NCBI GenBank assembly: GCA_042572295.1
Contig: JBHPFA010000003.1
Coordinates: forward strand, 45,802-109,801
DNA length: 64,000 nucleotides
Reading direction: 5' to 3'
DNA from: Nanobdellota archaeon
GTDB taxonomy: Archaea; Nanobdellota; Nanobdellia; Pacearchaeales; JAHJTO01
Part shown: in pieces, positions 20,326-54,014 of the stretch
Layout: the number at the start of each line of letters is the position of its first letter
Position numbering within the stretch: the stretch's first letter is position 1
The notes under the pieces: model-generated
Databases searched by the model: none
What the model saw: only the letters and a program-made list of their open reading frames with translations
What the model was told of the DNA's origin: nothing
Made by a program: the position numbers and the translations under genes

Positions 20326-20984
20326 CGATAATGCATACTAATCATATGTGTTTTTCTCTTATACTTTATTTTTAAGTAAATTGCATAGGCAATTCCTGCT
20401 AACAATCCTCCAAAGTGAGCTGTATTCCCTACAGGAAGATTAGCAGCTGCAGAAATAGACCACAAGCCAAACATGATTAGAATAACACCAAACCACATCG
20501 GCATGGCTATTGGAATAAACATGATATAAACAGGCAACTTAGGAGTTAATATCGCCAACATTCCCGCAATTCCAAATATAGCTGCACTCGCCCCTACAGC
20601 ACCCATACTAGGATCTCCAAAAATTCCATTTCCTTGGCCTCCAAATAATAAGGCCAGCACTACAAAAAACAAAGCCCCCATCAAAGCAGAAGCAAAATAA
20701 ATTCCTAAAAATCTTTTCTTACCAATTAACTTCTCTAAAAATCCACCGATAAACATTAAAGAGATCATATTTGCAAAAAGATGGAAAGGTCCTCCATGCA
20801 TAAACATACTTGTAACAAGTGTCCAAATCATCTGTCCTTGAGCAACAGCTATAGGCTTTAACGCAAGATAATCCATCAAATCACGTTTAAACAAAACAAT
20901 TGGAAATACAATAAAAAAAATCGCTACATTCAATAGGATAAGTGTTAAAGTCGCACTCCTTGCTTTTCTTCTATGCCTTATCAT
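20322..20984 (-). CDS. Rhomboid family intramembrane serine protease
   Basis: WTLVTSMFMHGGPFHLFANM, catalytic GASAA (Ser) and AHFGG (His); coupled to tfe (TAA-A-ATG with GAGGT SD). Confidence 0.93.
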   Translation of the reverse strand: MIRHRRKARSATLTLILLNVAIFFIVFPIVLFKRDLMDYLALKPIAVAQGQMIWTLVTSMFMHGGPFHLFANMISLMFIGGFLEKLIGKKRFLGIYFASALMGALFFVVLALLFGGQGNGIFGDPSMGAVGASAAIFGIAGMLAILTPKLPVYIMFIPIAMPMWFGVILIMFGLWSISAAANLPVGNTAHFGGLLAGIAYAIYLKIKYKRKTHMISMHYR

Positions 20985-28956: not shown

Positions 28957-31900
28957 TCAATAAATCAGTTTCATCTTAGCTCTAGCATAAACTGTATAGA
29001 TATTTCTTGGATCCTTATCTAATAATCTTGAAACTTCTATATTTGACAAGCCTTTATCCCTTAAGTATATAATTAGAGACTCTAATACACTTAATTTCCT
29101 TTGTCTAAATATACTAATAGGAATAATTACATCAGTCTTTGCAATCTTCAGCTTCTTTCTCTTATTATTGTTATATTGTTTCCATATCGCCCCATCATCT
29201 CTCTTTATTATACTAGAAATCTGACTTAATCTTAAGTCTAAGTTCTCCTTCATATACTTTACAAGTGTTTCTGCAGGTCCCAAGTCTGAAGCGAAAGCAG
29301 TTACTGGGATTATTAATTTCTCTTGTTCCTTATCCTTTATCTTATTGATCTGCTCAACAACTTCATCCAACTCAATTCCATATTCCTTTTTCAATCCAAG
29401 GTCTAATCCCTTCAACAATTTATTCTTCTTGAAATAGACATTGCTTAAATCAATTGAATAGTCTTGTTTGATCAAATCTGTAGGAGTTTCATCCAAATAA
29501 GTAAGCTTTATCTTAGCTCTTGCATAAACTGTATAGATATTTCTTGGATCTTTATCTAATAATCTTGAAACTTCTATGTTTGACAGACCTTTATCCCTTA
29601 AGTATATAATTAGAGACTCTAATACACTTAATTTCCTCTGTCTAAATATACTGATAGGAATAATTACATCAGTCTTTGCAAGCTTCAGCTTCTTTCTCTT
29701 AGTGTTATTATACTGCTTCCATATTGCTCCATCATCTCTCTTGATTATATTAGAGATTTGGCTGAACCTTAAATCTAAATTCTCTTTCATATACTTTACA
29801 AGTGTTTCTGCAGGTCCTAAGTCTGAAGCAAACACAGTTACTGGTATTGTCAACTTCTCTTGCCCCTTATCTTTTATCTTATTAATCTGTTCAACAACTT
29901 CATCTAACTCAATTCCATATTCTTTCCTCAATTCTAAGTCTAGCTTCTTCAACAACTTGTTCCTTTTCTTTCTCTTTAATGTAAACACTGCCAAAGCTGC
30001 AATTACTTTAATATACCAAGCCCTACTTAATGCAGTTGAATAGGCCTGTTTAATCAATTCGCTAGAAGTTTCAGTCAAACAATAAGCCAATTCTTCTTGT
30101 GCTACTCCGCCACCTTCACTCAAATTACCCCTTGTAAGGCTTGATCCTGTAACATTCACAAAAGTATCTTGTATTAAAGAATCTCCAGAACAAGCTGCCC
30201 CCAAATTACTGCTTACACTGAAGTTCTCCGCATATATAATATAATTACCATCTTGTTCTCCAGTCAGATTGACTGCACTTACTGAAATGTTTGATATTAC
30301 AGCATTTCCAGTATGATTTATTGTTAAGTTGCTATCTGGAAGTTGATTTGAAGATCCTCTTGTTATCTCAAACCAATTAATCGAAGCAGGAGACATTACA
30401 ATCGCTGCAAATGATTCATAAGTAAATGAAACAGAATCATTAGTAGCATTCTCCCAACTCTCATCAGAAACTGTTGCTGTAATATTCCAACTTCCAGCTT
30501 CATCAAAATAATACATTCCAACAATACATGAAAAGTTCATGTAATTTCCAGCAGATGAAACATTCAAACATGAAGTATTCTCTCTCAAAGGTTCACTACC
30601 TCTTGAGAAATTTATCTGAGCAGTGCTTACATTCACATCACCAAATCCATCCGTATCCAAAACAGTGAAGTTGACTGAAACATTCACAACTCCTGCTTCT
30701 TCAGGAGTAATACTTGAACTAATCTCAATAGCTGTAATCTGTGGAGCAGTATTTGCAGCTGCCAAAACAGTCAAGTTATTCGAAACATTCAATCCACCAT
30801 CAACTTCCAAATCATTTGGAGTTACCTCACATGTCCAATTTTCTCCAACAGTTGTTTCACTTGAATGTATTGTTGAAGTATTCAAGGAATTATTTCCTTC
30901 CAAGAAATTCTGATAAACTTGTTCAGCAGATAATGAAACATTGTAAATCCTCACACCATCCATCCTTCCAGTAAAAGGCCAAACAGTGTAAGCTGATCCA
31001 GCCCTACCTATAGCAGTATTAGTTGATGATGTAAAAAGTCCAATCTTACTAGCTGCAGAAATGGCAGTATTATCATCTGCTATTCCATTTACATAAAGAG
31101 TTACAGTTCCCTCTGCGGAATCTCTCGTCGCAACCACATGAGTCCATTGACCCAGAGTGATGCTTGTTGTTGTTCCCGAAATTTGAACACATGAACCACT
31201 TTTACAAGATAGGAATGCTGGGCGATTATTACTATCCTTAGCAAGATCATATTGTGCATTCTGTCCAGCTGCATCGAAATTACCTATGAGATGGGTTGTA
31301 ACACTTAATGTAGTATTTATCCAAGCTTCCAAAGTAATTGCACCAGTTATATTCAAACTAAGATCTTTTCCAACATCTATATAATCGGCAGTGAAATCAT
31401 AAGCTCCCCCAACCCTTCCATCAGAAGTCCAAACAACACCACTAAGAATTCCATCATTCCCACTTCCAGAATAATCTTTAGCCACAGTTGAATTCTCAGT
31501 ATCAAAAGGCATATTCAATACAGTTGTAGAAACTCCATTCTTCAACCAATTGAAGATTGGATAAACTGCATCCCCATCTATATCATCTAAGTTTTGAGGA
31601 TAACAAGTCAAGTTCTCTGAAGTGTAATTCGCTCCAGTAGTTGAATTAACAAGAGGATTATCTTGAGTAGGAGCATTATTCCCTTCAGTAGTTTTAGCTA
31701 GCCAACCAATATTTGCAGTATATTCATCTGAAGAAGCCTCTCCACTTCCTTGCTGATAAGTTCCAGTATGTCTTAAAGTTGCACCGCCACTTCCTTGTCC
31801 TCCAAAAATTCCAGTTTGATAAGTAACATTTCCAGTGATATTGGTTCCATAAAGTAAGAATGCTCCAAAGATTAAGGCAATGATTAAGAATGAAAATCCT

Positions 31901-32046
31901 ATCTTAAAACGTCTTTTTCTTTCACGTTTTTCTTGATTTTGTTGTACGTTTCTCCAAAAAGAATTTTGGTAAACAGAGTAGTCTCTCCAGCTGCCTTTGC
32001 TACGAGAAAGACTACTCTGTCCAAAAAATTCTAAATGTCGCGACAT
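28957..32046 (-). CDS. Surface protein with LamG-like domain, membrane-proximal module and duplicated C-terminal tandem-HTH domain (1029 aa)
   Basis: N-terminal TM; LamG motifs (ITLEAWIN, GQWTHVVAT, FTGRMDGVRIYN); WYIKVIAALAVFTL-KRKKR; then two copies of a two-HTH unit (e.g. LSNIEVSRLLDKDPRNIYTVY). Confidence 0.9.
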   Translation of the reverse strand: MSRHLEFFGQSSLSRSKGSWRDYSVYQNSFWRNVQQNQEKRERKRRFKIGFSFLIIALIFGAFLLYGTNITGNVTYQTGIFGGQGSGGATLRHTGTYQQGSGEASSDEYTANIGWLAKTTEGNNAPTQDNPLVNSTTGANYTSENLTCYPQNLDDIDGDAVYPIFNWLKNGVSTTVLNMPFDTENSTVAKDYSGSGNDGILSGVVWTSDGRVGGAYDFTADYIDVGKDLSLNITGAITLEAWINTTLSVTTHLIGNFDAAGQNAQYDLAKDSNNRPAFLSCKSGSCVQISGTTTSITLGQWTHVVATRDSAEGTVTLYVNGIADDNTAISAASKIGLFTSSTNTAIGRAGSAYTVWPFTGRMDGVRIYNVSLSAEQVYQNFLEGNNSLNTSTIHSSETTVGENWTCEVTPNDLEVDGGLNVSNNLTVLAAANTAPQITAIEISSSITPEEAGVVNVSVNFTVLDTDGFGDVNVSTAQINFSRGSEPLRENTSCLNVSSAGNYMNFSCIVGMYYFDEAGSWNITATVSDESWENATNDSVSFTYESFAAIVMSPASINWFEITRGSSNQLPDSNLTINHTGNAVISNISVSAVNLTGEQDGNYIIYAENFSVSSNLGAACSGDSLIQDTFVNVTGSSLTRGNLSEGGGVAQEELAYCLTETSSELIKQAYSTALSRAWYIKVIAALAVFTLKRKKRNKLLKKLDLELRKEYGIELDEVVEQINKIKDKGQEKLTIPVTVFASDLGPAETLVKYMKENLDLRFSQISNIIKRDDGAIWKQYNNTKRKKLKLAKTDVIIPISIFRQRKLSVLESLIIYLRDKGLSNIEVSRLLDKDPRNIYTVYARAKIKLTYLDETPTDLIKQDYSIDLSNVYFKKNKLLKGLDLGLKKEYGIELDEVVEQINKIKDKEQEKLIIPVTAFASDLGPAETLVKYMKENLDLRLSQISSIIKRDDGAIWKQYNNNKRKKLKIAKTDVIIPISIFRQRKLSVLESLIIYLRDKGLSNIEVSRLLDKDPRNIYTVYARAKMKLIY
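28974..29964 (-). repeat. Intragenic duplication (period 537 bp) of the tandem-HTH unit
   Basis: 28974-29427 and 29511-29964 are near-identical at a constant 537-nt (179-codon) offset. Confidence 0.92.
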
Positions 32047-32073
32047 TTTTTCTATTTGTGGTGATCAGCCACG

Positions 32074-32164
32074 TATTATGTATGATTTTTACCCTTAAAA
32101 AGGTGCGTATTATGTATGATATAAAGAAGACAAATTAAGCCTTAAAACACGTAATATGTATGAT
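32074..32164 (-). promoter_or_regulatory. Promoter with three copies of 13-bp motif TAWTATGTATGAT (plus-strand reading)
   Basis: Copies at 32074-32086, 32108-32120 and 32152-32164; minus-strand TATA TTTTTAAG starts at 32101. Confidence 0.8.
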
Positions 32165-40225: not shown

Positions 40226-40274
40226 AATACTCACTGATTCCTCACTAATCAGTGAGGAATATTAGGTATTTAAA
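40226..40274 (-). promoter_or_regulatory. RHH operon promoter with inverted-repeat operator
   Basis: ATTCCTCACT-AATC-AGTGAGGAAT (40237-40260) plus an extra CTCACTGATT site; minus-strand TATA TTTAAATA starts at 40274. Confidence 0.75.
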
Positions 40275-43200
40275 GGTTTTCCTTTTTCTTTAACTTATCT
40301 CCTGCTCTTTTGAATAGTGTATAGATATTTCTTGGATCTCTATCCAACATCTTAGCTATCTCTACATTACTTAATCCTTCTTTTCTTAAGTGTAAAGTCA
40401 GACTTTCCAAGATACTTAATCTTCTATCACTGAATATCGAGACTGGAACTTCTAATTCCCCTTTCTTAACAATTAATTTCTCTCTTCTCTTAGAAGCATT
40501 CTGATAAGTTGTCCATATACTTCTGTCATTTCTATTCAACACTTTAGCAATTTCACTTAATTTCAAATCAAACTCTTCCTTCATATATCTAACAACTAAT
40601 TCTGCAGGACTTATATTGGATTTGAACAACGAAATAGGTATTGTTCTCCTTTCTTCCTCTCTTAAAGTCATCGCTGAAGAAACCAACTCTTCAGGACTCA
40701 ATCCATAGACTTCTCTTAATTCTCTCAAAGCCTTTAATACTCTCTTTTTCCTCTTAGTCTTTAATGTAAACACTGCCAATGCTGCAATTATCTTAATATA
40801 CCAAGCTCTGCTTAATGCAGTTGAATAAGCTTGTTTAATCAAATCAGCAGAAGTTTCAGTTAAACAATAAGCTAATTCTTCTTGTGCTGTTCCTCCACCT
40901 TCACTCAAATTACCTCTTGTAAGACTTGATCCAGTAACATTCACAAAAGTATCTTGTACTAAAGAATCTCCAGAACAAGCTGCTGCTAAATTACTGCTTA
41001 CACTGAAATTCTCCGCATATATAATATAATTACCATCTTGTTCTCCAGTCAAGTTGACTGCACTTACCGAGATGTTTGAGATTACAGCATTTCCAGTATG
41101 ATTTATTGTTAAATTGCTATCTGGAAGTTGATTTGAGGATCCCCTGACTATTTCAAACCAATTGATCGAAGCAGGAGACATCACTATTGCTGGAAATGAT
41201 TCATAAGTGAAACTTACAGTATCATTAGTTGCATTCTCCCAACTCTCATCAGAAACTGTTGCTGTAATATTCCAACTTCCAGCTTCATCAAAATACCACA
41301 TTCCAACAGTACAAGTAAAGTTGATATAATTGCCACTTGATGAACCACTTGAACAAGAAGTATTCTCTCTCAAAGGTTCAATTCCCCTTGTAAAATTAAC
41401 AGCAGCAGTACTTACATTCACATCTGCAAATCCCTCTGTATCTAAAACTGTAAAGTTGACTGAAACATTCACAACTCCTGCTTCTTCAGGAGTAATACTT
41501 GAACCAACAAATATTTGAGTTATTTGTGGAGCAGCATTTAAAGGTCCTAAAACTTCCAAAGCTGTTGAATTAGACATATTCCCTACATCTTCCAAATCAC
41601 TAGGAGTAACTTCACACGCCCACTCTTCTCCAGCCGAAGTTAAATCAGAGGTTAAAGTGCTTGAATTAAAATATTCAGTTGCTTCATTATATAACAAAGC
41701 AACTTGTGAATCACTTAAAGTTTTATTATAAAGAACAACTTTTCCAAGAGTTCCATTAAATGCTGAACTTCCAGTATTAGTTGCACCAATATAAAAATCT
41801 ACCCCTACATTGACTAAATCAGCAACCTTATTTCCTACATTGTTATCCAAACTCCCATTGATATAGAACTTAATATTACTCCCATTATAAGTAGCAACTA
41901 TATGATTCCAAACATTATTATTTACAGTTCCAATAGAGTCTGCCGATACAGTATCTGTCGCCCCATCTCCAAGTATAAGTCTAACTTGATCTGAAGTAAC
42001 AATACTCAAACCATACTCTCTAGATCCTGAAGTTCCCCATTTATAAGTCATATATTGAGTAAAACCAGTATAACCTCCTGGTCTAGCCCAAACTTCCATA
42101 GAAAATTCTTCATTCACAAAACTCAAAGAATCATCATCAACAACTTTGATACGTGTTGCATTATATGGATTGAATTCATAAGCCCCTCCTACAAGAATAG
42201 AAGTATTCCATTGAGGATAAGCACCACTTGCACCTAACAAACTTCCATTATTTCCTAATCCAGAATAATCCCAAACAGCATCAGTAGCATTTGTCACATT
42301 ATTATCAAAAGGCATATTCAATACAGTAAGAGAATTTCCATCAACTTTCCAATTGAAAGTTAGATATATCTGATCCCCCTCAGTATCATCTAAATTCTGT
42401 GCATAACAAATGAGATTCTCATTTGTTGTATTATCTCCAGTTGTAGAGTTAAGTATTGGTGTCCCTTGAGTAGGTGCAATATTTGCAGGAATTTGATATT
42501 CATCACTCAATGCAAGATAATCTGTATTGTTTCCAGTCAAGTTATATGCCACATCACAGAATCCATTGGTATTTGCATCTGCACAAGTATCAGAGAATCC
42601 AGTTCCAGAGGAATTTGTCCAATAATTTCCCCCAATCTGCGTTCCCTCTCCAAAAATTCTTGTTCCTGCTTGTTGTGTTGCATTCAAATAATTCACTTTT
42701 GGAGTAGGAGCTGTAACATAATTTGTGTTATTGAAAAGATTGTTATAGACACTATTATTCTGAGCATTGCCGGAGAAATAAATTTCAGGATTATTCTGGA
42801 AGAAAGTATTTCCAATTACCCTATTTCCGTGGGCTGCACTAAACAGAATACCTGCTGAAATGGAATTAGAAATCGTGTTATTCCTTATAGTAGTATTCCT
42901 TACATTAGTCCTCAAATAAATACCTTCCAGGCCACTACTTACAAATTCACTATTTTCTATAGTGTTATTAGAACAACCTAACCCAACATATACTCCATAA
43001 AGATTATTTGAAGAATTTACATTATCAATATGCACTGAGGCAGTGCCTGCTAGTAGGTGTATTCTGTTATTACCAAGAGAATCTGAACCTGAAACATTTA
43101 CATTAGTTATGTTAGAATAATCTGCATCACAAAGTATCAATGAAGAAAACTCTTGATTTTCCAAATTCACAGAATAATTATAGAAACCTATCTGTCTCCC

Positions 43201-46200
43201 TCCAGATCCAGTCATGTTTTCTATTTTGTGACTACACTCAGAAGCAGAATTTGCAGTTAAAATAAGATCCTCCCAGGTACTTTCCTGAACAGTATTATTT
43301 ATTATTTGATTTAAGCTTGAACTTGCAAGGTAAATTCCATAACCACCTTCAAGGATCCTATTGGAGACAATAGTATGCTCTCCTCCACTCGAAATTCTTA
43401 ATCCATAATAAACACTATCATTTATAGTATTATTGAAGAAAGTATTATTATTTCCCAATCTTGATTCTATTCCATATTCAAAGTTCTCAATGATACAGTT
43501 CTTGATAGTTACATTAGTATTTGTAGAAGAGCTTCTTGTTATATTCACCCCATAACTACTAGATGCCCGACTTCCATTGATTAAAAATCCTGCACAATCC
43601 AAAGTCACATTATCTGCATCTATATTGAAACAAGTTTCAGAAGAGCTTACATCCCGAGTCATTGTATAAACTGTATTTGCACTATCCAAATTTCCACAGA
43701 TTCCTGGAACAGTTATACCCTCTTGCACACGATAACTTGTAAAATGGCTTACATTGAACACAAAAGTGCTTCCATCCCAACTTAAATTATTACAGACAGG
43801 AGTTGTTGTTGCATTACATGCTGAAAAACTTCCAGTATCTCCAACATCAACATAAGCTTGAGGTTCTATAAAGCTTAAACCTTCTAAACCTCCTAAAGTA
43901 ATCTCGGCAGAGACATTAAATGGATTAAGCAAAGTAGAGTTTAAGTAAACTTTATTTTGAGTAAGATTAAGATGAGAATTGTTGACTACAGTTCCTGCAC
44001 TTTGAATACGTATCTCTTGAGGATATCTTAAATCAGTAGATCCTTCTCTAAAAGTAGTATTTGCAAATTTAGTGTCGGATCCAATAGCCACTCTGATATA
44101 AGTGGTATTTTCTAAAACAGAAAGTCTGTTGTGCTCAAAATAATTTTGGTTAGAACTGCTTAGGACAACAATTAATTCTTGACCTTCAAGAATGTTTCTG
44201 GAGATATTGTTTGCATAACCATCAATCACAATTCCCCTCTCAGAATTATTTTGTAAAGTATTAGAGGTGACAAAAGAAGAGGTAACGCTCGGCCCTAAAT
44301 AAATACCATCATCATTGTCATATAAAGTGTTATTGAGAACCACTGCATCCTCATTTGATGAAGTAAAAAATATTCCTGAACTGAAATTTATTATTTTACA
44401 ATTCTTTATTGTTGCATCAGCCTTGATAGAAGTTACATTTATTCCTGCACTACCAGCAACTCTGGAACCGGTGATTGTGTATCCTTGACAATCAACAGTT
44501 ATGTTGTTTGCATCGATATCTATACAAGTTCCTGAAGAGGTTATATTGTTCTGTAAAGTATAGACTGTGTTTGCCAAATCTAAAGTTCTCGGACAAGAAG
44601 TTATGTTTGTTGAAGGAGTATCTTCAAATGAATAAGTTGTGAAGCTTGAAACATTAAACACAAATGTGCTTCCATCCCAACTTAAGTTATTACATTGTGG
44701 AGCAATACAAAGATCAAAATTTCCATCATCACCATAATCCACCAGCACTCTAGGATTGGTAAAGCTGGCATTTTCTAAAGTGACTTCAGCAGAGACATTA
44801 AATGGATTAAGCAAAGTAGAGTTTAAGTAAACTTTATTTTGAGTAAGATTAAGATGAGAATTGTTGACTACAGTTCCTGCACTTTGAATAAGTATCTCTT
44901 GAGGATATCTTAAATCAGTAGATCCTTCTCTAAAAGTAGTATTTGCAAATGTAGTGGTTGATCCAACAGCCACTCTGATATAAGTGGTATTTTCTAAAAC
45001 AGAAAGTCTGTTGTGCTCAAAATAATTTTGGTTAGAACTGCTTAGGACAACAATTAATTCTTGACCTTCAAGAATGTTTCTGGAGATATTGTTTGCATAA
45101 CCATCAATCACAATTCCCCTCTCAGAATTATTTTGTAAAGTATTAGAGGTGACAAAAGAAGAGGTAACGCTCGGCCCTAAATAAATACCATCATCATTGT
45201 CATATAAAGTGTTATTGAGAACCACTGCATCCTCATTTGATGAAGTAAAAAATATTCCTGAACTGAAATTTATTATTTTACAATTCTTTATTGTTGCATC
45301 AGCCTTGATAGAAGTTACATTTATTCCTGCACTATCAGCAACTCTAGAACCTGTGATTGTATATCCTTGACAATCAACAGTTATGTTGTTTGCATCGATA
45401 TCTATACAAGTTCCTGAAGAGGTTATGTTGTTCTGTAAAGTATAGACTGTGTTTGCTAAATCTAAAGTTCTCGGACAAGAAGTTATGTTTGTTGAAGGAG
45501 TATCTTCAAATGAATAAGTTGTGAAGCTTGAAACATTAAACACAAAAGTAGTTCCATCCCAACTTAGATTATTACATTGTGGAGCAGGACAAAGATCAAA
45601 ATTTCCATCATCATCATAATCAACAAGCGCTCTAGGATTAGTAAAGCTAGCATTTTCTAAAGTAATCTCAGCCGAGATATTAAAGAGGGTAAGTGAAGTG
45701 GAATTTAAGTAAACTTTATTTTGAGTAAGATTCATATAAGAGTTATTGACTATATTTCCTGAACCAAGAGTTATCTCTGAAGGGTATCTTAATTCAGTAT
45801 AACCTTCTTTAAAAGTTGTATTTACAAATTTATTAGTGACTCCAGAAATCACTCTGATGTAAGTAGTATTTTCTAAGACAGAAAGCCTGTTGTGCTCAAA
45901 ATAATTTGAATTAGAACTGCTGCTAAGGAAAATCGATTCTGGGCCTTCAATAATATTCCTTGAGATATTGTTTAAAGAAGCACTAGCAAACCATATCCCT
46001 TTCACTGAATTGTTCTGTATAGTGTTGGAAGAAATAAAAGAAGCAGTAACGCTCGGCCCTAGATAGATACCATTATCATTGTCATATAAAGTGTTATTGA
46101 GAACCACTGCAGCCTCATGTACTAAAGTAAAAAATATTCCTGAACTGAAATTCATTATTTTACAATTCTTTATTGTTGCATTATTTTTAACAGAAGTTAC

Positions 46201-49200
46201 ATTTATTCCTGCACTATCAGCAACTCTGGAACCAGTGATTGTGTATCCTTGACAATCAACAGTTATGTTGTTTGCATCAATATCTATACAAGTTCCTGTA
46301 GAGGTTATATTGTTTAGTAAAGTATAAACAACATTTTCCGAACCCAAAGTTGTTGGACAGGAAGTAATATTTACTGCAGTGATTGGTATTTCCAAAACTT
46401 CCAAAGCAGTCGAATTCACAGGACTTCCAGCATCTTCCAAATCAGTTGGAATAACTTGACAAGTCCAATTCTCCCCAATAGTGGTCTCATCTGAATGTAT
46501 TGTTGAGGTATTCAAACCATTCAAGCCTTCTTGATAGACTTGAGCAATTTGATTAGCACTCATTGAATAATTGTAGATTTTTACTTCATCAATAGTCCCT
46601 TCATATTGACTACCTCCATCACTAAATTCCCCAATATAAATATTATTGGACAAACCAGTACTTAATGTAGCAGTATTTGATGCATAAACACTTCCATTAA
46701 CATAAATTATAGAGTTAGTTGTATTGTGAGTATAAACTACATGATACCAAGTAGATGTTTGAATACCTATAGGCCCCTCAATGCTTGGATCACCCCAAGC
46801 AACAAACCTAAATCTTCCACCTTGTAAATTTAAATAAGAAGCCAATCCTGAAGTTCCAGTAGGCCCCCATCCAAAAATATTCTGATCATTAGTAACTCCA
46901 CTTCCAGTATGAACCCAAGCCATCATAGTTCTTTCTTCATTACCTCTAGGAAGAGGAGTTTGATTAGCTGCAATAATATAATCTCCACTTCCATCAAAAG
47001 TGTACGCTCCTCCAACTTTTCCATTAGAAGTCCAGACAGCATTTGTTATTGATCCATCACTCCCATAACCAGAATAATCTTTCGCAGTACTAGACTCATT
47101 GACATCAAAAGGCATATTAAAAATAGCATCAGGAACATCATTCTTCCACCAATTGAATATTGGATAAACAGCATCTCCATCTTCATCTGAAAAAGACTGA
47201 GGGTAACAAGTGAGATTTTCACTTGAATAATTTTCCGCAGTTGTAGAGTTAAGTAAAGGTGTTCCTTGTGAAGGAACAAGATTTAATATTGTTAAAGTTG
47301 AAGAATTCTGCCATGCAGAATAATTCTCACCATCATAAGCCCTTGCCCCACAAATTACCCCATCACCTTTGCTAAAGTTTGGTGAATTAAGCAAAACACT
47401 TGCTGCAGAATTATTTGTAACTGAAGTTGCATTCTCTAAATAAACCGAAGAATCATTAACAAACCACCTAAACTCAACAGTTCCTGCAGTTCCTTCTGCA
47501 TCTGTGTAATTAACAGAACAATTCAAAGTAGAGTTTGTGTAAGCAGTACTTGGAATAACAAATGGAAGTGTTGTGTTTGGAGCTACATTTACTACCAATT
47601 CCAAAACTTCCAAAACAGTCGAATTGGCAGGACTTCCATCATCTTCCAAATCAGTTGGAATAACTTGACAAGTCCAATTTTCTCCAAGAGTAGTTTCATC
47701 TGAATGTATTGTAGAAGTATTCAAGCCATCCAAACCTTCTTGATAAATCTGCGCAACTTGATATGCAGATAAAGAATAATTATAGATTCTTGCTTCATCA
47801 ATTGTTCCTTCGAAATAACCGCTTCCAAAACCATACACTCCAACATAAATATTTGAATAAGTTGTACTTAGAGTAGTGGTTCTGCTCGCATAAAGACTTC
47901 CATTAACATATATTATGAGATTAGTCCCATCATGAGTAGCAGCTACATGATACCAAGTGTTTGTTTGAATATTCGCAGACCCCTCAAGACCAGGCTCACC
48001 AATTGCAACAAACCTAATTTTACCACCTTGTTGATTAAGATAAGAAGTATTCCCTGTATCAGTAGTGGGTCCCCACCCAAGAAAAGTTTGATCACTAGAA
48101 ACATCACTTCCAGTATAAATCCAAGCCATCAAAGTTCTAGGCTCATTACCTAATGGAAGATGTGTTTGATTAACAGCAGTTATATTTGCAGTACTTCCAT
48201 CAAAACTATAAGCTCCTCCAACTTTTCCAGAAGAAGTCCAAACAGCATTAGCTATTAATCCATCACTCCCATATCCAGAATAATCTTTAGCTTCGCTTGA
48301 ATCATTCAGATCAAAAGGCATATTAAAAATAGCATCTGAAACATCATTCTTCCACCAATTGAATATCGGATAAACAGCATCTCCATCAACATCTGAAAAA
48401 GACTGAGGGTAACAAGTGAGGTTTTCACTTGAATAATTTTCCGCAGTTGTGGAGTTAAGTATAGGTGTTCCTTGAGTAGGAGCATTATTTGAAGCTCCCA
48501 AAATCTCCAAAGCACTTGAATTAGCAGGATCTCCTGTTTCATTTAAATCAGTAGGAATAACTTGACAAGTCCAACTTTCACCAATAGTAGTTTCCTCTGA
48601 ATGAATTGTTGAAGTATTCAATCCTTCAAGTCCCTCTTGATACAATTGAGCAATCTGTTCCGGGGACATAGAGATATTATATAGCTTAACCTCATCAATA
48701 AGCCCATTAAACCACCTATTCCTTAGAGTATTTCCACCGATCTCCATATAATTCAAAGTCGTGACACTTCCAGGAACATAATCAGCACTTCCAATACTAC
48801 CTGAATTCGCATAAACTATAGCTTTTGATCCATTAACAGTCATAGCAAGTTGATACCAAGTATTCTGTGAAAGTGAATATTCGTCTACAACCTTATGATT
48901 AGTTCCATCTGGAGAGAAAAAAACGTTTAGCAAGTTCTGAGCGTTGTATTTGTATTCGAATGTAAATCCATCATCAGTTGAACCATAATTAGGAAGCTTA
49001 GCTGAAGTAACCATTCTTGGCCAAGATCCAGTCCCTGATCCAAGAGATTTTCTCCAAAATACAACCGTGAACTCTGTAAAATCTCCAAGAACGTGTGAAA
49101 CATTGATATGATCTCCATTTCCATCAAATTTATAAGCTCCGCCCTTTATTCCAGATGAACTCCAGAAAGTGTTACCATGAGGAGTTCCATTATTCCCATA

Positions 49201-52200
49201 TCCTGAATAATCTTTAGCCTCAATTGAACTATTCAAATCAAAAGGCATGTTTAATATTGCAATAGGAACATCATCTTTCCACCAATTGAATATTGGATAG
49301 GCTGCATCTGAAAGGGACTGAGGGTAACAAGTGAGGTTGTCACTTGTTAAATCTGCCCCAGTTGTAGAGTTAAGTATAGGTGTTCCTTGTGTAAGACCTG
49401 TGGGAGATGTTATTGTTAATTCTGAAGAATTCTGCCATTCAGAATAATTCCCTCCATCATAAGCTCTCACTGAACATATTACAGTATCTGCTAAACTAAA
49501 ATTTGATGAACTAAGCAACACACTCGCTGCAGAGTTATCTGCTACAGATGTTACATTCTCTAAATGAACAGAAAAATCATTCACAAACCAAATAAAGCTT
49601 ACATTTCCAGCTGTTCCTTCAAAGTCAGTATAATTCACAGTACAATTCAAAGTTGAAGCTGGATTTGCAGGCGTTGGAATAATCAAAGGTTTAGTAGTAT
49701 TTGGAGCTGCGTTCACAATCTCCAAAACCTCCAAAGCACTTGAATTAGCAGGATCTCCAGCATCTTCCAAATCAGTTGGAATAACTTGACAAGTCCAATT
49801 CTCCCCAATAGTGGTCTCATCTGAATGTATTGTTGAAGTGTTCAATGAATTATTTTCCTCCAAAAATAATTGATAAATTTGTGAAGCAGATAAAGAAGCA
49901 TTAAATATTTTAACATCTCCAAAAGAACCATCAAAAGTATTCCCAGATCCACCAAAATAAGATCCCAAACGAGTATTTCCCCCAATAGCTTTTGGAGTAT
50001 AAGCAATATCTCCTCCAATCTGTTGACCATTTTTATAAACTCTTGCAATAGTTCCTTCAAAGGCAAATACTATATGTTGCCAAACTCCTACATCCCCTGC
50101 AACATTTGTTTCCTTCCAAGCACCATCATAAAACAAGATAGTATCTTCACTACCTACATCCCTCATAGCCAACACTAATCTTCCACTTTCAGAATCTAAT
50201 AAGAAATCAGAATCAGTTAATGAAGTTGGTTTTACCCAAAAAATAAATGTCTTGTCTACATTAGAAGGTATTGAAAGAGAAGAAATAACAATATCATCTC
50301 CAGCATCATCAAAATAATAAGACCCTCCAAACCTACTTGATAAATTCCAAATAGGTCCTGCAATAGTCCCATCAATACCATTTCCAGAATAATCTTTTGC
50401 AGTCACTGAATCATTCAAATCAAAAGGCATATTTACCAATGCAACTGGTGCATCATCTTTCCACCAATTGAATATCGGATAAACTGCATCTCCATCTCCA
50501 TCTGCAAGACTTTGTGGATAACATGTTAAGTTCTCACTTGTAAAGTTTGTTCCAGTTGTAGAATTAAGTATAGGTGTTCCTTGAGTAGGATGAGCTTCCA
50601 AAATCTCCAAAGCACTTGAATTGGCAGGACTTCCATCATCTTCCAAATCAGTTGGAATAACTTGACAAGTCCAATTTTCTCCAACAGTTGTTTCTTCTGA
50701 AACTATTGTTGAAGTATTCAGATTATTCAAACCCTCTTGATACAATTGAGCAATCTGTTCCTGAGACATAGAGAAATTATATAGCTTAACCTCATCAATA
50801 AGCCCATTAAACCACCTACTTGAGGGATTATGACCTCCTATCTGCATATTATTGAAAGTTATTACGTTTCCAAAATCTCCTCTATCTACTGACCCGGCAA
50901 CAGTTGACCCATTATAAAGTGTGGCCCTAGTCCCATTGAAGGTCATAGCGACCTGATACCATACATTATCTGAAACAGAAAATGATCCGACTGACCATCC
51001 ATTTCCATCTTCCTTAAAGCCACCATTGATGATCGATTGACTATTAGTAGAATGTTCAAATGTAAATCCATCACTTGCTGAAGCATAATCTGCAATATTA
51101 CCTGCAGTAACCATTCTTGGGTAATCTCCAGTCCCTGATCCATGAGATTTTCTCCAGAACACAACAGTAAACTCTGAGAAATTTCCAAAAACGTGTGAAA
51201 CATTTATGAAATCTCCACTTCCATCAAATTGATAAGCCCCACTCCTCATTCCAGATGAATTCCAGAAAGTGTTATCCTGCAGAGTTCCATTATTCCCATA
51301 TCCAGAATAATCTTTTGCTTCAGTTGAACTATTCAAATCAAAAGGCATGTTCAAAACTGTTTGAGAGGTTCCATCTTTCCACCAATTAAATATCGGATAG
51401 ACTGCCTCTCCATTAGCATCTGAAAGGGACTGAGGGTAACAAGTGAGATTTTCATTTGTTGTATTCGCCCCAGTTGTAGAGTTAAGTATAGGTGTTCCTT
51501 GAGTCGGTGGAGAATTTAATGAAGAAATTCCAATTGTTAAGGTAGTTGAATTGGCAGGACTTCCATCATCTTCCAAATCAGTTGGAATAACTTGACAACT
51601 CCAATTCTCACCAAGAGTAGTTTCATCTGAAACAATTGTTGAAGTATTCAATCCAGTAAATCCCTCTTGATAGATTTGATTAATTTGATTAGCAGATAAA
51701 GAATAATTATAAACTCTCACATCATCAATTTTTCCAGTGAGTACCCCATCATCCCAACTTTGCTTCCCTATAGTAATATTTGAGGAAGTAGTAGCAAGAG
51801 TTAAAGAAGATTTACTAGCATACTGAGAACCATTGACATAAATAATTCCATCTGTTCCATTATAAGTAAATGCAACATGGTACCATATATTTCCTGGTAG
51901 GTCTGCACCCGTTTGTATATCATAAGCTGATGAAATTCCTACAAATCTAAATTTATTATTATCTGCTGTAAGATAACTACCTTGCCCAGCAATAGGATTC
52001 CCCCATCCAACAATTGTTTGAGGATATCCAATATTAAAATTGGGAGTAATTGCCCAGCCCATCATTGTTCTTGGTTCATTCCCTAAAGGAACAGAAGTTT
52101 GATTATCAACAGAAATACGAACATCATCACCCCTATCTCCACTAAAAGAATAAGCTCCTCCGATTTTTCCATCAGAAGTCCAAGTAGGCCCACTAGAATC

Positions 52201-53847
52201 TATATTCCCATCACTCCCATAACCAGAATAATCTTTAGCTTCGCTTGAATCATTCAAATCAAAAGGCATATTCAAAATAGCAACTGGAACATCATTTTTC
52301 CACCAATTAAATATCGGATAAACTGCATCCCCATTAGCATCTGAAAAGGACTGGGGGTAACAAGTGAGGTTTTCTGATTCATTATTTGTTCCACTTGTTG
52401 AATTCAAAATAGGTGTTCCTTGTGTAGGGGGAGAATTTACTAGAAGATTATCCCCAATTGTTAAAATAGTTGAATTAGCCGGATCCCCTGTTTCATTTAA
52501 ATCATTTGGAATAACCTGACAACTCCAATTCTCACCAAGAGTAGTTTCCTCTGAATGAATTGTTGAAGTGTTCAAAGAATTGTCTTCTTCTAAAAAGATT
52601 TGATAGATTTGTTCATCAGATAAAGCATAATCAAATACTTTAGTACCTTGCACTGCACCATCAAACCATTGACGGTCAGTATAAGTTCCAATTTTTCTTC
52701 CAAACTGAAGTGGATCGCTTCCAGTATTTAGGGCAATGGTCCCAGTATTATCTAATGTACCATTAATATACAACATTACATCAGTTCCGTTATAAGTTGC
52801 AGTAACATGATACCATTCTCCAGCATTAAGGACTGCATTTGAAGGAAGATCTCCACTAATTCCCCACATAGCAATATGTCCTGCTCCTGCCCATCCAAAT
52901 GTTGCAATAGAGAATACCTTATAAGTTTCATGAGTATTTAACCCCCATGAAACTGCTACTTGAATCTTATCTGCAGTAAAGCTATCGAACCTTGCCCAAG
53001 TCATCAAAGTTCTTGGAGCTGTACCAGTTGGAAACGTCCCAGTAGTATCGATATAATCCCCATTTCCATCAAACTCATAAGACCCCCCGCCTCTTGAAGA
53101 AAGAGCCCAAATAGCATTAGTTATTGTTCCATCATTCCCATTTCCAGAATAATCTTTTGTAGTTGTAGAATCATTCAAATCAAAAGGCATATTCACTAAT
53201 GTTTGAGAAACTCCATTTTTCCACCAATTGAATATCGGATAGACTGCATCTCCATCTCCATCTGCAAGACTTTGTGGATAACAAGTTATGTTATCAGATT
53301 CATTACTTGTTCCACTTGAAGAATTCAAAATAGGTGTTCCCTGAGTAGGGACTGCCAAAATCTGCAGGTCATCAGAAGAAGTAGACATTTCTTCTTCTGG
53401 AAATTCAACAAAAGGTTGTTCAGAAACAGAAGTATCTTGTTCTTCAGGCTGACTTAAATCAATTTGTGCTTCAATAGGTTCATCAATTGGTGGTTCAACA
53501 GGTTGTTCATCCACCACATCATTCAAATCATTCATGTCGATCAGGGGTTGAAAAGGAGCAGTAACTGCTCCAGAAATAACACCAAAAGTTGTAGAAAGGG
53601 ACTCTAGAGTTAAGCCTTCTACCCCTGATCCACTGAAGAATGAAAATAAAAATAAAGATATAAACATTAAAGCAAAAAGAGCAGAGAAAATTCTCCCCCA
53701 TCTTAAATTTTTAAGATGAAATAAAAAATTAGATTTTTCTTTATAATCTAAGTCAGAATGAAGCTTTTTACGGAATTTAGAATAGTCTTTCCATTCACAT
53801 TCTAGCCTAGACTTACTAGTACTACTTAACTCTACAAAGTCCCTCAT
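40270..53847 (-). CDS. Giant surface protein (4525 aa): 8 LamG-like modules, 2 Ig-like, 4 parallel beta-helix (CASH/NosD-like) modules, membrane-proximal module, hydrophobic segment and C-terminal tandem HTH
   Basis: Eight (P/L)(T/S)QGTP(I/L)LNS-initiated LamG modules; NNTLYDN/NNTIQ beta-helix repeats; WYIKIIAALAVFTL-KTKRKKR; HTH motifs LKLSEIAKVLNRNDRSIWTTY and LSNVEIAKMLDRDPRNIYTLF. Confidence 0.92.
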   Translation of the reverse strand: MRDFVELSSTSKSRLECEWKDYSKFRKKLHSDLDYKEKSNFLFHLKNLRWGRIFSALFALMFISLFLFSFFSGSGVEGLTLESLSTTFGVISGAVTAPFQPLIDMNDLNDVVDEQPVEPPIDEPIEAQIDLSQPEEQDTSVSEQPFVEFPEEEMSTSSDDLQILAVPTQGTPILNSSSGTSNESDNITCYPQSLADGDGDAVYPIFNWWKNGVSQTLVNMPFDLNDSTTTKDYSGNGNDGTITNAIWALSSRGGGSYEFDGNGDYIDTTGTFPTGTAPRTLMTWARFDSFTADKIQVAVSWGLNTHETYKVFSIATFGWAGAGHIAMWGISGDLPSNAVLNAGEWYHVTATYNGTDVMLYINGTLDNTGTIALNTGSDPLQFGRKIGTYTDRQWFDGAVQGTKVFDYALSDEQIYQIFLEEDNSLNTSTIHSEETTLGENWSCQVIPNDLNETGDPANSTILTIGDNLLVNSPPTQGTPILNSTSGTNNESENLTCYPQSFSDANGDAVYPIFNWWKNDVPVAILNMPFDLNDSSEAKDYSGYGSDGNIDSSGPTWTSDGKIGGAYSFSGDRGDDVRISVDNQTSVPLGNEPRTMMGWAITPNFNIGYPQTIVGWGNPIAGQGSYLTADNNKFRFVGISSAYDIQTGADLPGNIWYHVAFTYNGTDGIIYVNGSQYASKSSLTLATTSSNITIGKQSWDDGVLTGKIDDVRVYNYSLSANQINQIYQEGFTGLNTSTIVSDETTLGENWSCQVIPTDLEDDGSPANSTTLTIGISSLNSPPTQGTPILNSTTGANTTNENLTCYPQSLSDANGEAVYPIFNWWKDGTSQTVLNMPFDLNSSTEAKDYSGYGNNGTLQDNTFWNSSGMRSGAYQFDGSGDFINVSHVFGNFSEFTVVFWRKSHGSGTGDYPRMVTAGNIADYASASDGFTFEHSTNSQSIINGGFKEDGNGWSVGSFSVSDNVWYQVAMTFNGTRATLYNGSTVAGSVDRGDFGNVITFNNMQIGGHNPSSRWFNGLIDEVKLYNFSMSQEQIAQLYQEGLNNLNTSTIVSEETTVGENWTCQVIPTDLEDDGSPANSSALEILEAHPTQGTPILNSTTGTNFTSENLTCYPQSLADGDGDAVYPIFNWWKDDAPVALVNMPFDLNDSVTAKDYSGNGIDGTIAGPIWNLSSRFGGSYYFDDAGDDIVISSLSIPSNVDKTFIFWVKPTSLTDSDFLLDSESGRLVLAMRDVGSEDTILFYDGAWKETNVAGDVGVWQHIVFAFEGTIARVYKNGQQIGGDIAYTPKAIGGNTRLGSYFGGSGNTFDGSFGDVKIFNASLSASQIYQLFLEENNSLNTSTIHSDETTIGENWTCQVIPTDLEDAGDPANSSALEVLEIVNAAPNTTKPLIIPTPANPASTLNCTVNYTDFEGTAGNVSFIWFVNDFSVHLENVTSVADNSAASVLLSSSNFSLADTVICSVRAYDGGNYSEWQNSSELTITSPTGLTQGTPILNSTTGADLTSDNLTCYPQSLSDAAYPIFNWWKDDVPIAILNMPFDLNSSIEAKDYSGYGNNGTPHGNTFWSSSGIKGGAYKFDGNGDHINVSHVLGDFTEFTVVFWRKSLGSGTGSWPRMVTSAKLPNYGSTDDGFTFEYKYNAQNLLNVFFSPDGTNHKVVDEYSLSQNTWYQLAMTVNGSKAIVYANSGSIGSADYVPGSVTTLNYMEIGGNTLRNRWFNGLIDEVKLYNISMSPEQIAQLYQEGLEGLNTSTIHSEETTIGESWTCQVIPTDLNETGDPANSSALEILGASNNAPTQGTPILNSTTAENYSSENLTCYPQSFSDVDGDAVYPIFNWWKNDVSDAIFNMPFDLNDSSEAKDYSGYGSDGLIANAVWTSSGKVGGAYSFDGSTANITAVNQTHLPLGNEPRTLMAWIYTGSDVSSDQTFLGWGPTTDTGNTSYLNQQGGKIRFVAIGEPGLEGSANIQTNTWYHVAATHDGTNLIIYVNGSLYASRTTTLSTTYSNIYVGVYGFGSGYFEGTIDEARIYNYSLSAYQVAQIYQEGLDGLNTSTIHSDETTLGENWTCQVIPTDLEDDGSPANSTVLEVLELVVNVAPNTTLPFVIPSTAYTNSTLNCSVNYTDAEGTAGTVEFRWFVNDSSVYLENATSVTNNSAASVLLNSPNFSKGDGVICGARAYDGENYSAWQNSSTLTILNLVPSQGTPLLNSTTAENYSSENLTCYPQSFSDEDGDAVYPIFNWWKNDVPDAIFNMPFDVNESSTAKDYSGYGSDGSITNAVWTSNGKVGGAYTFDGSGDYIIAANQTPLPRGNEERTMMAWVHTGSGVTNDQNIFGWGPTGTSGLASYLNLQGGRFRFVAWGDPSIEGPIGIQTSTWYHVVYTHNTTNSIIYVNGSVYASNTATLSTGLSNNIYIGEFSDGGSQYEGTIDEVKIYNYSMSANQIAQVYQEGLNGLNTSTIHSDETTIGENWTCQVIPTDLEDAGSPVNSTALEVLEIPITAVNITSCPTTLGSENVVYTLLNNITSTGTCIDIDANNITVDCQGYTITGSRVADSAGINVTSVKNNATIKNCKIMNFSSGIFFTLVHEAAVVLNNTLYDNDNGIYLGPSVTASFISSNTIQNNSVKGIWFASASLNNISRNIIEGPESIFLSSSSNSNYFEHNRLSVLENTTYIRVISGVTNKFVNTTFKEGYTELRYPSEITLGSGNIVNNSYMNLTQNKVYLNSTSLTLFNISAEITLENASFTNPRALVDYDDDGNFDLCPAPQCNNLSWDGTTFVFNVSSFTTYSFEDTPSTNITSCPRTLDLANTVYTLQNNITSSGTCIDIDANNITVDCQGYTITGSRVADSAGINVTSIKADATIKNCKIINFSSGIFFTSSNEDAVVLNNTLYDNDDGIYLGPSVTSSFVTSNTLQNNSERGIVIDGYANNISRNILEGQELIVVLSSSNQNYFEHNRLSVLENTTYIRVAVGSTTTFANTTFREGSTDLRYPQEILIQSAGTVVNNSHLNLTQNKVYLNSTLLNPFNVSAEVTLENASFTNPRVLVDYGDDGNFDLCIAPQCNNLSWDGSTFVFNVSSFTTYSFEDTPSTNITSCPRTLDLANTVYTLQNNITSSGTCIDIDANNITVDCQGYTITGSRVAGSAGINVTSIKADATIKNCKIINFSSGIFFTSSNEDAVVLNNTLYDNDDGIYLGPSVTSSFVTSNTLQNNSERGIVIDGYANNISRNILEGQELIVVLSSSNQNYFEHNRLSVLENTTYIRVAIGSDTKFANTTFREGSTDLRYPQEIRIQSAGTVVNNSHLNLTQNKVYLNSTLLNPFNVSAEITLGGLEGLSFIEPQAYVDVGDTGSFSACNATTTPVCNNLSWDGSTFVFNVSHFTSYRVQEGITVPGICGNLDSANTVYTMTRDVSSSETCFNIDADNVTLDCAGFLINGSRASSSYGVNITRSSSTNTNVTIKNCIIENFEYGIESRLGNNNTFFNNTINDSVYYGLRISSGGEHTIVSNRILEGGYGIYLASSSLNQIINNTVQESTWEDLILTANSASECSHKIENMTGSGGRQIGFYNYSVNLENQEFSSLILCDADYSNITNVNVSGSDSLGNNRIHLLAGTASVHIDNVNSSNNLYGVYVGLGCSNNTIENSEFVSSGLEGIYLRTNVRNTTIRNNTISNSISAGILFSAAHGNRVIGNTFFQNNPEIYFSGNAQNNSVYNNLFNNTNYVTAPTPKVNYLNATQQAGTRIFGEGTQIGGNYWTNSSGTGFSDTCADANTNGFCDVAYNLTGNNTDYLALSDEYQIPANIAPTQGTPILNSTTGDNTTNENLICYAQNLDDTEGDQIYLTFNWKVDGNSLTVLNMPFDNNVTNATDAVWDYSGLGNNGSLLGASGAYPQWNTSILVGGAYEFNPYNATRIKVVDDDSLSFVNEEFSMEVWARPGGYTGFTQYMTYKWGTSGSREYGLSIVTSDQVRLILGDGATDTVSADSIGTVNNNVWNHIVATYNGSNIKFYINGSLDNNVGNKVADLVNVGVDFYIGATNTGSSAFNGTLGKVVLYNKTLSDSQVALLYNEATEYFNSSTLTSDLTSAGEEWACEVTPSDLEDVGNMSNSTALEVLGPLNAAPQITQIFVGSSITPEEAGVVNVSVNFTVLDTEGFADVNVSTAAVNFTRGIEPLRENTSCSSGSSSGNYINFTCTVGMWYFDEAGSWNITATVSDESWENATNDTVSFTYESFPAIVMSPASINWFEIVRGSSNQLPDSNLTINHTGNAVISNISVSAVNLTGEQDGNYIIYAENFSVSSNLAAACSGDSLVQDTFVNVTGSSLTRGNLSEGGGTAQEELAYCLTETSADLIKQAYSTALSRAWYIKIIAALAVFTLKTKRKKRVLKALRELREVYGLSPEELVSSAMTLREEERRTIPISLFKSNISPAELVVRYMKEEFDLKLSEIAKVLNRNDRSIWTTYQNASKRREKLIVKKGELEVPVSIFSDRRLSILESLTLHLRKEGLSNVEIAKMLDRDPRNIYTLFKRAGDKLKKKENL
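43907..45670 (-). repeat. Intragenic tandem repeat, 882-bp unit (294 aa), two near-identical copies plus a diverged third to ~46380
   Basis: Constant 882-nt offset (e.g. GCAGAGACATTAAA at 43907 and 44789) with only scattered substitutions. Confidence 0.93.
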
Positions 53848-53856
53848 TTTTCTACT

Positions 53857-54014
53857 TAATATGTATGATTTTTACCCTTAAAAAGGTTTCTCAAGTAACT
53901 AATTTGTATGATTTAAGACTCCTTACCCCACATCCCACAAATTAGGTCCCTTTCTACCTAATATGTATGATAAACTAGCTTATAAAGATTACTATAATCA
54001 CTAATATGTATGAT
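53857..54014 (-). promoter_or_regulatory. Promoter with four copies of the 13-bp motif TAATATGTATGAT
   Basis: Copies at 53857-53869, 53900-53912 (one mismatch), 53959-53971 and 54002-54014; minus-strand TATA TTTTTAAG starts at 53884. Confidence 0.82.

Follow-up and report, generated by a model that had tools for sequence, protein, structure and literature searches.

A candidate autoregulatory operator in the promoters of giant DPANN surface proteins with tandem helix-turn-helix tails

Membrane-integrated one-component regulators are known from bacteria (ToxR, TcpP, and CadC) and from Sulfolobus acidocaldarius (ArnR/ArnR1), and proteins of this kind act at promoters, often on direct repeats, while they are anchored in the membrane. 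The giant surface proteins described here resemble them in having an extracytoplasmic part, a transmembrane (TM) helix, and a cytoplasmic DNA-binding domain in one polypeptide, a topology that in our case is predicted from the sequence. They differ from ToxR, CadC, and ArnR in the type of DNA-binding domain, which is a C-terminal tandem pair of sigma-region-4/Tfx-like helix-turn-helix (HTH) domains and not an N-terminal OmpR-type winged helix, and in the extracellular part, which is a structural or adhesin-like protein of 1,000 to 4,500 aa instead of a small sensor domain. In addition, the only target that can be detected for them is their own gene. An archaeal precedent for several phased boxes in front of a regulator's own gene is Ss-LrpB of Saccharolobus solfataricus, which has three regularly spaced boxes in its control region and shows concentration-dependent autoregulation; the arrangement is similar to ours, but Ss-LrpB is a soluble protein of the Lrp/AsnC family with palindromic boxes. 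Pairs of ECF sigma factors and membrane anti-sigma factors are also comparable, as a region-4-like module is coupled to a membrane or surface protein in an autoregulated circuit. However, the present system lacks sigma region 2 and belongs to a host whose RNA polymerase is archaeal, with TBP and TFB, and its DNA-binding module occurs in duplicate, either covalently fused or translationally coupled to the surface protein. Made up of two region-4-like units and nothing else, and encoded in an archaeal genome, the tail does not qualify as a sigma factor.

The closest solved relative is EnfR (TON_1525, PDB 8HNO), a Tfx family protein with a region-4-like HTH that protects positions -44 to +3 of its target promoter and represses it (PMC10570040). 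EnfR itself is soluble and dimeric, carries a single HTH in each chain, and recognizes a pseudo-palindrome of 36 bp (PMC10570040). The proteins analyzed here share with EnfR the sigma-70 region-4 type of HTH, and the EnfR site also covers the TATA box and the start, but they have two HTHs per chain, a putative asymmetric 17-bp site in direct repeats, and a predicted membrane-tethered topology. They also lack the acidic C-terminal "note-head" domain of the Tfx/EnfR family, as only the HTH (48 residues) matches. The tandem-HTH system is thus outside the OmpR-type, sigma, and EnfR families, and our literature searches found no published description of the module or of the system.

To our knowledge, almost nothing has been described about gene regulation in DPANN archaea, and we know of no regulator-operator pair defined in them. 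Giant lectin-like surface proteins are thought to mediate contact with the host. The present analysis provides a 17-bp site, a predicted DNA-binding module of 160 aa, a proposal for which half-site each HTH reads, and naturally occurring variants in specificity from a single genome. If the reading proposed below is true, this would be a rare archaeal membrane-tethered transcription factor and a structural protein that carries its own repressor. Since the module is very widespread and attached to giant surface proteins, the circuit may be a main route by which episymbionts control their surface or sense through it.

Giant surface proteins with tandem HTH tails

The window, that is, the whole 64,000-nucleotide stretch of DNA that was analyzed (C3:45802-109801), belongs to an 856-kb genome with 33% GC in 14 contigs. 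Close homologs come from Woesearchaeota, Pacearchaeota, and Nanoarchaeia metagenome-assembled genomes, which places it among the DPANN archaea. Three minus-strand genes (genes 1 to 3) (Table 1), paralogs with homologous N termini, code for proteins with a common layout: a short basic N terminus predicted to be cytoplasmic, a hydrophobic segment, and a sequon-rich, presumably glycosylated ectodomain, followed by a second hydrophobic segment, a strongly basic patch, and a tail of ca. 160 aa with two HTH motifs. A search of the genome located this HTH-pair module in these three genes only. The hydrophobic segment AWYIKIIAALAVFTL is followed by KTKRKKR and then by the HTH pair, which, according to the positive-inside rule, puts the tail in the cytoplasm. 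We therefore infer a cytoplasmic, membrane-anchored tail that forms one polypeptide with the TM segment and the extracytoplasmic part.

Table 1. Location of the HTH-tailed genes, their promoter elements, and neighboring features. Positions are those of the window unless a contig is given.
Feature	Position	Strand	Remarks
Rhomboid-family intramembrane protease gene	about 20373-20831	-	95 bits; gene 1 is 8 kb away
Gene 1, 1029-aa surface protein	28957..32046	-	Cytoplasmic N-terminal segment, TM, LamG ectodomain, TM, two tandem HTH-pair modules (predicted)
Gene 1 HTH-pair modules	about 28966-29430 and 29503-29973	-	C-terminal end; together 28966-29973
Gene 1 box 1 (proximal), ATCATACATAATACGTG	32070..32086	-	-40 to -24 from ATG; 20.3 bits
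Gene 1 TATA-like box, TTTTTAAG	32094..32101	-	8 nt upstream of box 1
Gene 1 box 2, ATCATACATAATACGCA	32104..32120	-	19.5 bits
Gene 1 box 3, ATCATACATATTACGTG	32148..32164	-	20.9 bits
Gene 2, 4525-aa surface protein	40270..53847	-	C-terminal TM, basic patch, one HTH pair (tail 40273-40761)
Gene 2 box 1 (proximal), ATCATACATATTAAGTA	53853..53869	-	-22 to -6 from ATG; 24.2 bits
Gene 2 TATA-like box, TTTTTAAG	53877..53884	-	8 nt upstream of box 1; placed like the TTTATAAG of relatives
Gene 2 box 2, ATCATACAAATTAGTTA	53896..53912	-	18.5 bits
Gene 2 box 3, ATCATACATATTAGGTA	53955..53971	-	23.4 bits
Gene 2 box 4 (most distal), ATCATACATATTAGTGA	53998..54014	-	17.3 bits
316-aa ORF between genes 2 and 3	55928-56878	-	Free copy of membrane-proximal ectodomain module
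Gene 3, 3739 aa	56917..64000, on to C3:113937 outside the window	-	HTH-pair tail 56920-57396
Gene 3 variant boxes, TACATACATATTAAGGA, TACACACAAGTTAGGTA, TGCATACAAAATAAGAC	C3:113938-114110, outside the window		Promoter of gene 3
alaS-like gene, 586 aa	C3:114111-115871, outside the window	+	Divergent from gene 3

The tails of genes 2 and 1 match the Pfam family Sigma70_r4_2 (PF08281) with 34.0 and 26.3 bits, both above the gathering cutoff of 25.7, while that of gene 3 stays just under it with 24.1 bits. An AlphaFold2 model of the tail, based on a 14-sequence alignment (pLDDT 86.6, pTM 0.72), shows two three-helix HTH units, each with a pLDDT of >90. With the whole model, Foldseek retrieved no global relative (best E = 0.035), and its local matches were to the LuxR/FixJ-type domains in RcsB-DNA complexes, the sigma-like domain of PhyR, RpoE/sigma region 4, and EnfR (8hno). 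The EnfR match, of 0.8 A over 48 residues with 38% identity, was below significance when the sequences were compared (E = 0.24). A HMMER search of 1.84 billion representatives found the module in 1,992 clusters at 50% identity, 1,532 of them at E <=1e-10, mostly at the C-terminal end of proteins of 500 to 5,900 aa, although also in short proteins.

In gene 1, the whole module is present twice in tandem, which gives four HTH domains on one tail, and as both copies are nearly identical and share the same unusual first recognition helix (RDDGAIW), they reflect a recent internal duplication. The ORF located between genes 2 and 3 codes for a free copy of a membrane-proximal ectodomain module of ca. 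230 aa (..VNFTV.D...GNLSEGGG...YC..) of the fusion proteins, and it has neither a TM segment nor an HTH tail.

Clustered direct repeats in the promoters

The initial annotation of the window described a non-palindromic 13-bp motif repeated four times upstream of gene 2 and three times upstream of gene 1, one copy having a mismatch. A search for TAWTATGTATGAT with at most one mismatch reproduced these copies exactly, starting at 53857, 53900 (the one with the mismatch), 53959, and 54002 in the gap of gene 2 (spacings of 43, 59, and 43) and at 32074, 32108, and 32152 in that of gene 1 (spacings of 34 and 44), and confirmed the impression that the window contains no others. These seven matches compare with 0.71 expected, and seven or more appeared in 0 of 100 shuffles. 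Since all of them lie on the plus strand, antisense to the giant genes, the motif on the gene strand is ATCATACATAWTA, and it extends by 4 more bases to a box of 17 bp. Each cluster occupies a gap of ca. 220 bp between the stop codon of the upstream minus-strand gene and the ATG of the HTH-tailed giant gene. Rfam and tRNA scans gave no match at the repeat site.

The repeats are specific to these genes also at the genome level, as shown by a genome-wide scan, one of the checks that the initial annotation had proposed. The exact 13-mer, with ca. 0.5 copies expected by chance, is found six times within the two clusters and once more at C5:7478, a single copy inside a coding ORF that is consistent with chance. 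With a weight matrix, cluster-level scores were reached solely at the three HTH-tail genes, with the sole exception of a strong 17-mer at C1:172974, a single antisense copy inside a membrane-protein coding ORF that again is consistent with chance. The genome has 25 ORFs of at least 900 aa, mostly surface proteins, and only the three HTH-tailed ones have upstream boxes, with best scores of at least 20.9 bits versus at most 7.7 for the others. A second check had concerned the third fusion gene (helix DQRNIG), whose promoter lies beyond the window, and it does have a variant of the motif (Table 1). The gene 3 promoter is divergent with a short gene similar to alanyl-tRNA synthetase (alaS-like), and the boxes occupy most of the 173-bp intergenic region common to both.

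TATA-like hexamers in this genome show a sharp peak at -30 to -27 from the start codons, which suggests that most of its genes are leaderless. Across the order, the last box before the gene has a TATA-like hexamer, typically TTTATAAG, starting 13 to 14 nt upstream in 73 to 75% of promoters. The distance from TTTATAAG to the proximal box downstream is 6 nt, and in 24 of 44 promoters the end of this box falls at -3 to +1 of the ATG. Successive boxes are 51 to 56 bp apart in 30 of 46 intervals. The typical architecture is then a box (-68 to -52), the BRE/TATA (about -37 to -24), a second box (-17 to -1), and the start; in other words, a conserved site within the putative regulator's promoter overlaps the interval from the TATA box to the predicted transcription start and ends at the ATG of leaderless genes. 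The upstream boxes have a TATA-like hexamer in at most 4% of cases, compared to the 73 to 75% of the last box, which discards a series of tandem promoters with one TATA per box.

In the source genome, the block formed by the TATA box (TTTTTAAG), 8 nt, and the box is maintained, with the ATG 5 to 23 nt further downstream and three to four boxes at less regular distances. Two features speak against the autoregulatory reading proposed below: the spacings of genes 1 and 2 depart from the mode of 51 to 56 bp, and in some relatives (genus g32) a long leader has been inserted downstream of the boxes, ahead of the ATG. The spacings of 34, 44, 43, 59, and 43 are not convincingly phased with the DNA helix. 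The TATA-like box is surrounded by palindromic sequence, ACCTTTTTAAGGGT for genes 1 and 2 versus AGCTTTTTAAAGCT for gene 3, which looked like a hairpin with compensatory changes but is not maintained among the relatives. Some of the relatives show additional half-sites. Class A promoters (L047, L049, L052, L053, and L060, among others) carry, ca. 6 nt downstream of the distal box, a half-site in inverted orientation, ATACTTAA, which corresponds to the 3' block TTAAGTAT after reverse complementation, while in class B promoters the 5' half-box TACATAC abuts the TATA box (TACATACATTTATAAG).

The fixed register of the proximal box with the TATA box and the start, together with the half-box that abuts the TATA box in class B, could indicate that the boxes are intrinsic promoter elements (an extended initiator or promoter-proximal element plus upstream copies) used by the basal machinery with no dedicated regulator. 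We consider this very unlikely, given that 755 other promoters of the genome yielded only 4 forward matches, that the upstream copies come without a TATA box, that there can be up to eight copies, some of them inside the leader or the first codons, and that lineage-specific variants of the box track the HTH helices. We are nearly certain that the repeats are a dedicated cis-regulatory element.

Conservation and free-standing HTH pairs

Of the 61 close relatives, 12 have the tail, and at the level of the order it is present in 95 of 401 genomes. Among the first seven relatives with complete genes, six have the same upstream element, extended to about ATCATACATAWTAAGTA, and in the seventh (G038) a copy is found 556 bp upstream, behind a GC-rich insertion. 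An exact 15-mer pattern, expected ca. 0.07 times per genome, occurs in 12 of the 61 relatives, nearly always as two to three clustered copies at these genes, while the reversed 15-mer used as a control gave two singletons. Five genomes (G041, G045, G051, G055, and G059) contain the motif with no detected tail, but in all of them it is directly upstream of N termini similar to those of the fusion family, in genes that run off the contig end or into a run of Ns, so they do not represent counterexamples.

For the order-wide comparison, the 5' ends of 60 tail genes were retrieved, of which 49 provided usable promoters, taking as start codon the first ATG of the open frame, and these were scanned with the 17-bp matrix at a threshold of 10 bits or more. 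The gene strand of the 49 promoters gave 82 matches, against 0 for the other strand and 0 for the matched coding controls, with at least one box in 41 promoters and at least two in 34, whereas the 755 other upstream regions of the source genome gave 4 forward and 8 reverse matches. In most of the eight promoters without a match, either the box pair lies at a greater distance because a hairpin-rich leader has been inserted downstream of it, or variants can be recognized. The co-occurrence of motif and fusion among related genomes, also raised in the initial annotation, is thus found both in the close relatives and in the order.

An inserted element, seen in L050, L054, L055, L093, and L020 (mostly genus g32), is a GC-rich hairpin, GGCTGTC..ACACCCTA..GACAGCC, between the box pair and the ATG, which results in a leader of 250 to 550 nt with a Shine-Dalgarno sequence. 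It may represent a repeat of the MITE type or, alternatively, a structured leader RNA. In L093 (G370:C6), a perfect box, ATCATACATAATAAGTA, is located ca. 262 nt upstream of the start of G370b on the opposite strand, pointing away from the gene, and it may belong to a divergently transcribed gene.

The HTH pair also exists as free-standing proteins of 156 to 213 aa with no TM segment, and the genes located immediately before giant LamG genes (1211 to 4420 aa) code for HTH pairs of 170 to 215 aa. At the loci that could be read, the free-standing HTH-pair gene is directly followed by a gene coding for a secreted or giant surface protein (775, 3239 [LamG], 1211, 1381 [LamG], 4420, and 2342 aa), usually with overlapping stop and start codons. 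In the promoters of the free-standing genes, boxes of this family are directly repeated on the gene strand, two to eight times: eight in L151, (T/G)TCTTACAAATTAAGTA; three in L152, TTCTTACAAATTAAGTA and close variants; four in L034, TTCTTACAWAWTARGTA; four in L157, ACTTACAWWTAACGTA; two to four of related variants in L154 and L155; and one to three of weaker variants in L037 and L038; L036 has a diverged version with mixed orientation. At these loci, the upstream windows contain 20 forward matches versus 1 reverse, and the remaining ca. 50 kb contain 3 versus 0. The boxes at unfused HTH genes indicate that the box can be separated from the N terminus of the giant protein, so the link between motif and HTH pair extends to pairs encoded as a separate gene, and the constant feature is that the box heads the transcription unit encoding the HTH pair.

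In L034 (3563), L151, and L152, one box copy falls in the first codons of the annotated ORFs, where it encodes ..YKLSKK.., a sequence that P0165 and P0167 have conserved. This means either that box and coding start overlap or that the starts were annotated too far upstream. Three other candidates for free-standing genes (P0173, P0194, and P0004) were uninformative, being fragments or not the first gene of the operon, and the short tail frames of 98 to 123 aa in G164, G072, G177, and G287 are truncations at contig ends.

A neutral origin of the repeats, as leftovers of promoter duplication or of gene conversion among paralogs, finds some basis in the source genome, where the three genes are paralogs with homologous N termini and the first repeat of both gaps belongs to a 31-bp block, including the TATA-like box, that is common to genes 1 and 2. 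This explanation can practically be dismissed, as across families the boxes are conserved and the spacers between them are not, the orientation is strictly kept (82 to 0), and the boxes are also found at first genes that are not homologous, those of the free-standing HTH proteins.

Matched helix and box changes and the sense of regulation

On the gene strand, the box is a non-palindromic bipartite site with a 5' block, CAYACA, a 3-nt linker, and a 3' block, TAAGTA. In 103 sites from 50 promoters outside the source genome, information peaks at C3-A4-Y5-A6-C7-A8 and T12-A13-A14-G15-T16-A17 and is weak at positions 9 to 11, a profile somewhat shaped by the matrix, which was built partly from the source genome and the early relatives. 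There are thus two asymmetric 6-bp blocks, ca. 9 bp apart from center to center and in a single orientation, which fits a head-to-tail HTH pair that reads one face of the DNA, as the initial annotation had suggested when it remarked that an asymmetric site suits a tandem domain of this kind. The recognition helices are highly conserved across the order (..RDxRTIW.. in HTH1 and ..RDQRNIWT.. in HTH2), and so is the box.

The exceptions to this conservation come in pairs of helix and block. Genes 1 and 2 have the same second helix, DPRNIYT, already pointed out in the initial annotation and present in both proteins, and the same 5' block, ATCATACA, and they differ in HTH1 (RDDGAIWKQ versus RNDRSIWTT) and in the 3' block (TACGYG versus TARKKA). 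Gene 1 is alone in the set in having G-A in HTH1 (RDDGAIW) where all others have R/K-T/S, and all three of its boxes have a C at position 14, a base that none of the 103 other sites shows there (98 have A and 5 have G). P0205 likewise combines a deviant HTH1 (RNVWH) with an equally deviant sequence in the 3' block, TAACGTA, and has a normal HTH2 and a normal 5' block. On the other side, an R-N in HTH2 goes with CAYACA in the fused genes and [KRQ]-T with CTTACA in the free-standing ones. In addition, a T at position 11 never appears in the 20 genes with a Y-x-K HTH1 but does so in about 19 of the 26 with Y-x-N, two subfamilies that coexist in genome G352. The pairings of HTH2 with the 5' block and of HTH1 with position 11 track subfamily splits and so amount to few independent events, and the matches of gene 1 and P0205 are single events each. 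Short of proof, this covariation suggests that the 3' block is read by HTH1 and the 5' block by HTH2.

The box is always upstream of the gene or operon encoding the HTH pair, so co-occurrence alone cannot separate binding by the gene's own product from an inherited promoter element, and any dedicated regulator of this gene family would predict it equally. The repeats could then be a real operator bound by another trans-acting factor, encoded elsewhere, with the HTH tail having other targets or a role not related to DNA. Several observations make this rather improbable: in the source genome, the HTH pair and the boxes are restricted to the same three genes; when the pair is encoded by a separate gene at the head of the unit, the box is found with that gene; the deviant helices of gene 1 and P0205 are matched by deviant boxes; and no other covarying regulator was evident, in what was not a systematic survey. 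We consider it probable that the repeats are an autoregulatory operator read by the gene's own tandem-HTH tail. This is the reading advanced in the initial annotation, and the specificity of the clusters, the gene 3 variant, the co-occurrence among relatives, and the unfused HTH pairs all lend it support at the level of sequence.

Provided that the tail binds the boxes, the position rules of other archaea, on which the sign of regulation is judged here, make repression somewhat more plausible. The proximal box lies between the TATA box and the transcription start, a position from which archaeal repressors block the recruitment of RNA polymerase, and the boxes in the leaders and first codons of the free-standing systems also make repression the likelier sign. 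The HTH pair could instead bind the boxes and activate, through positive autoregulation or by recruiting the basal machinery from the upstream box in the manner of sigma region 4. The distal box upstream of the BRE/TATA (about -68 to -52) is in the usual position of archaeal activators, and the domains are region-4-like, but a box that fills -17 to -1 in most promoters, and others that lie downstream of the start in free-standing systems, are hard to square with pure activation, and EnfR is a repressor. All in all, we find activation unlikely.

In the mechanism that we propose, one HTH pair would read one box, with HTH2 contacting the 5' block and HTH1 the 3' block, and there would be one to three further boxes upstream of the TATA/BRE, typically ca. 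52 bp away. As this distance corresponds to five helical turns, tails bound on both sides of the core promoter would share one DNA face. Negative feedback would most likely be the outcome and, since only the completed and membrane-inserted protein carries the C-terminal repressor, output would be limited by the finished product; at low occupancy, the box upstream of the BRE could activate. A membrane-tethered tail must be able to reach the DNA, which is plausible in a very small cell, and ToxR and CadC are precedents for tethered DNA-binding domains that do so. Proteolytic release of the tail, or a change in its activity upon surface contact, would turn the circuit into a signal from the outside to the gene.

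More tentatively, giant host-facing surface proteins of DPANN archaea may be single-polypeptide devices that connect the surface with the genome. In them, feedback would count completed proteins, contact, tension, or intramembrane cleavage could free or silence the tail and so reprogram expression, and paralogs would be insulated from each other by matched changes in helix and half-site, as in gene 1 versus gene 2. We think that this broader idea is possible but doubtful. With respect to tail release, the rhomboid and site-2 protease (S2P) families are ubiquitous and add nothing specific to the idea; the genome codes for a member of each, a rhomboid-family intramembrane protease in the window (Table 1) and an M50 S2P homolog on contig C4.
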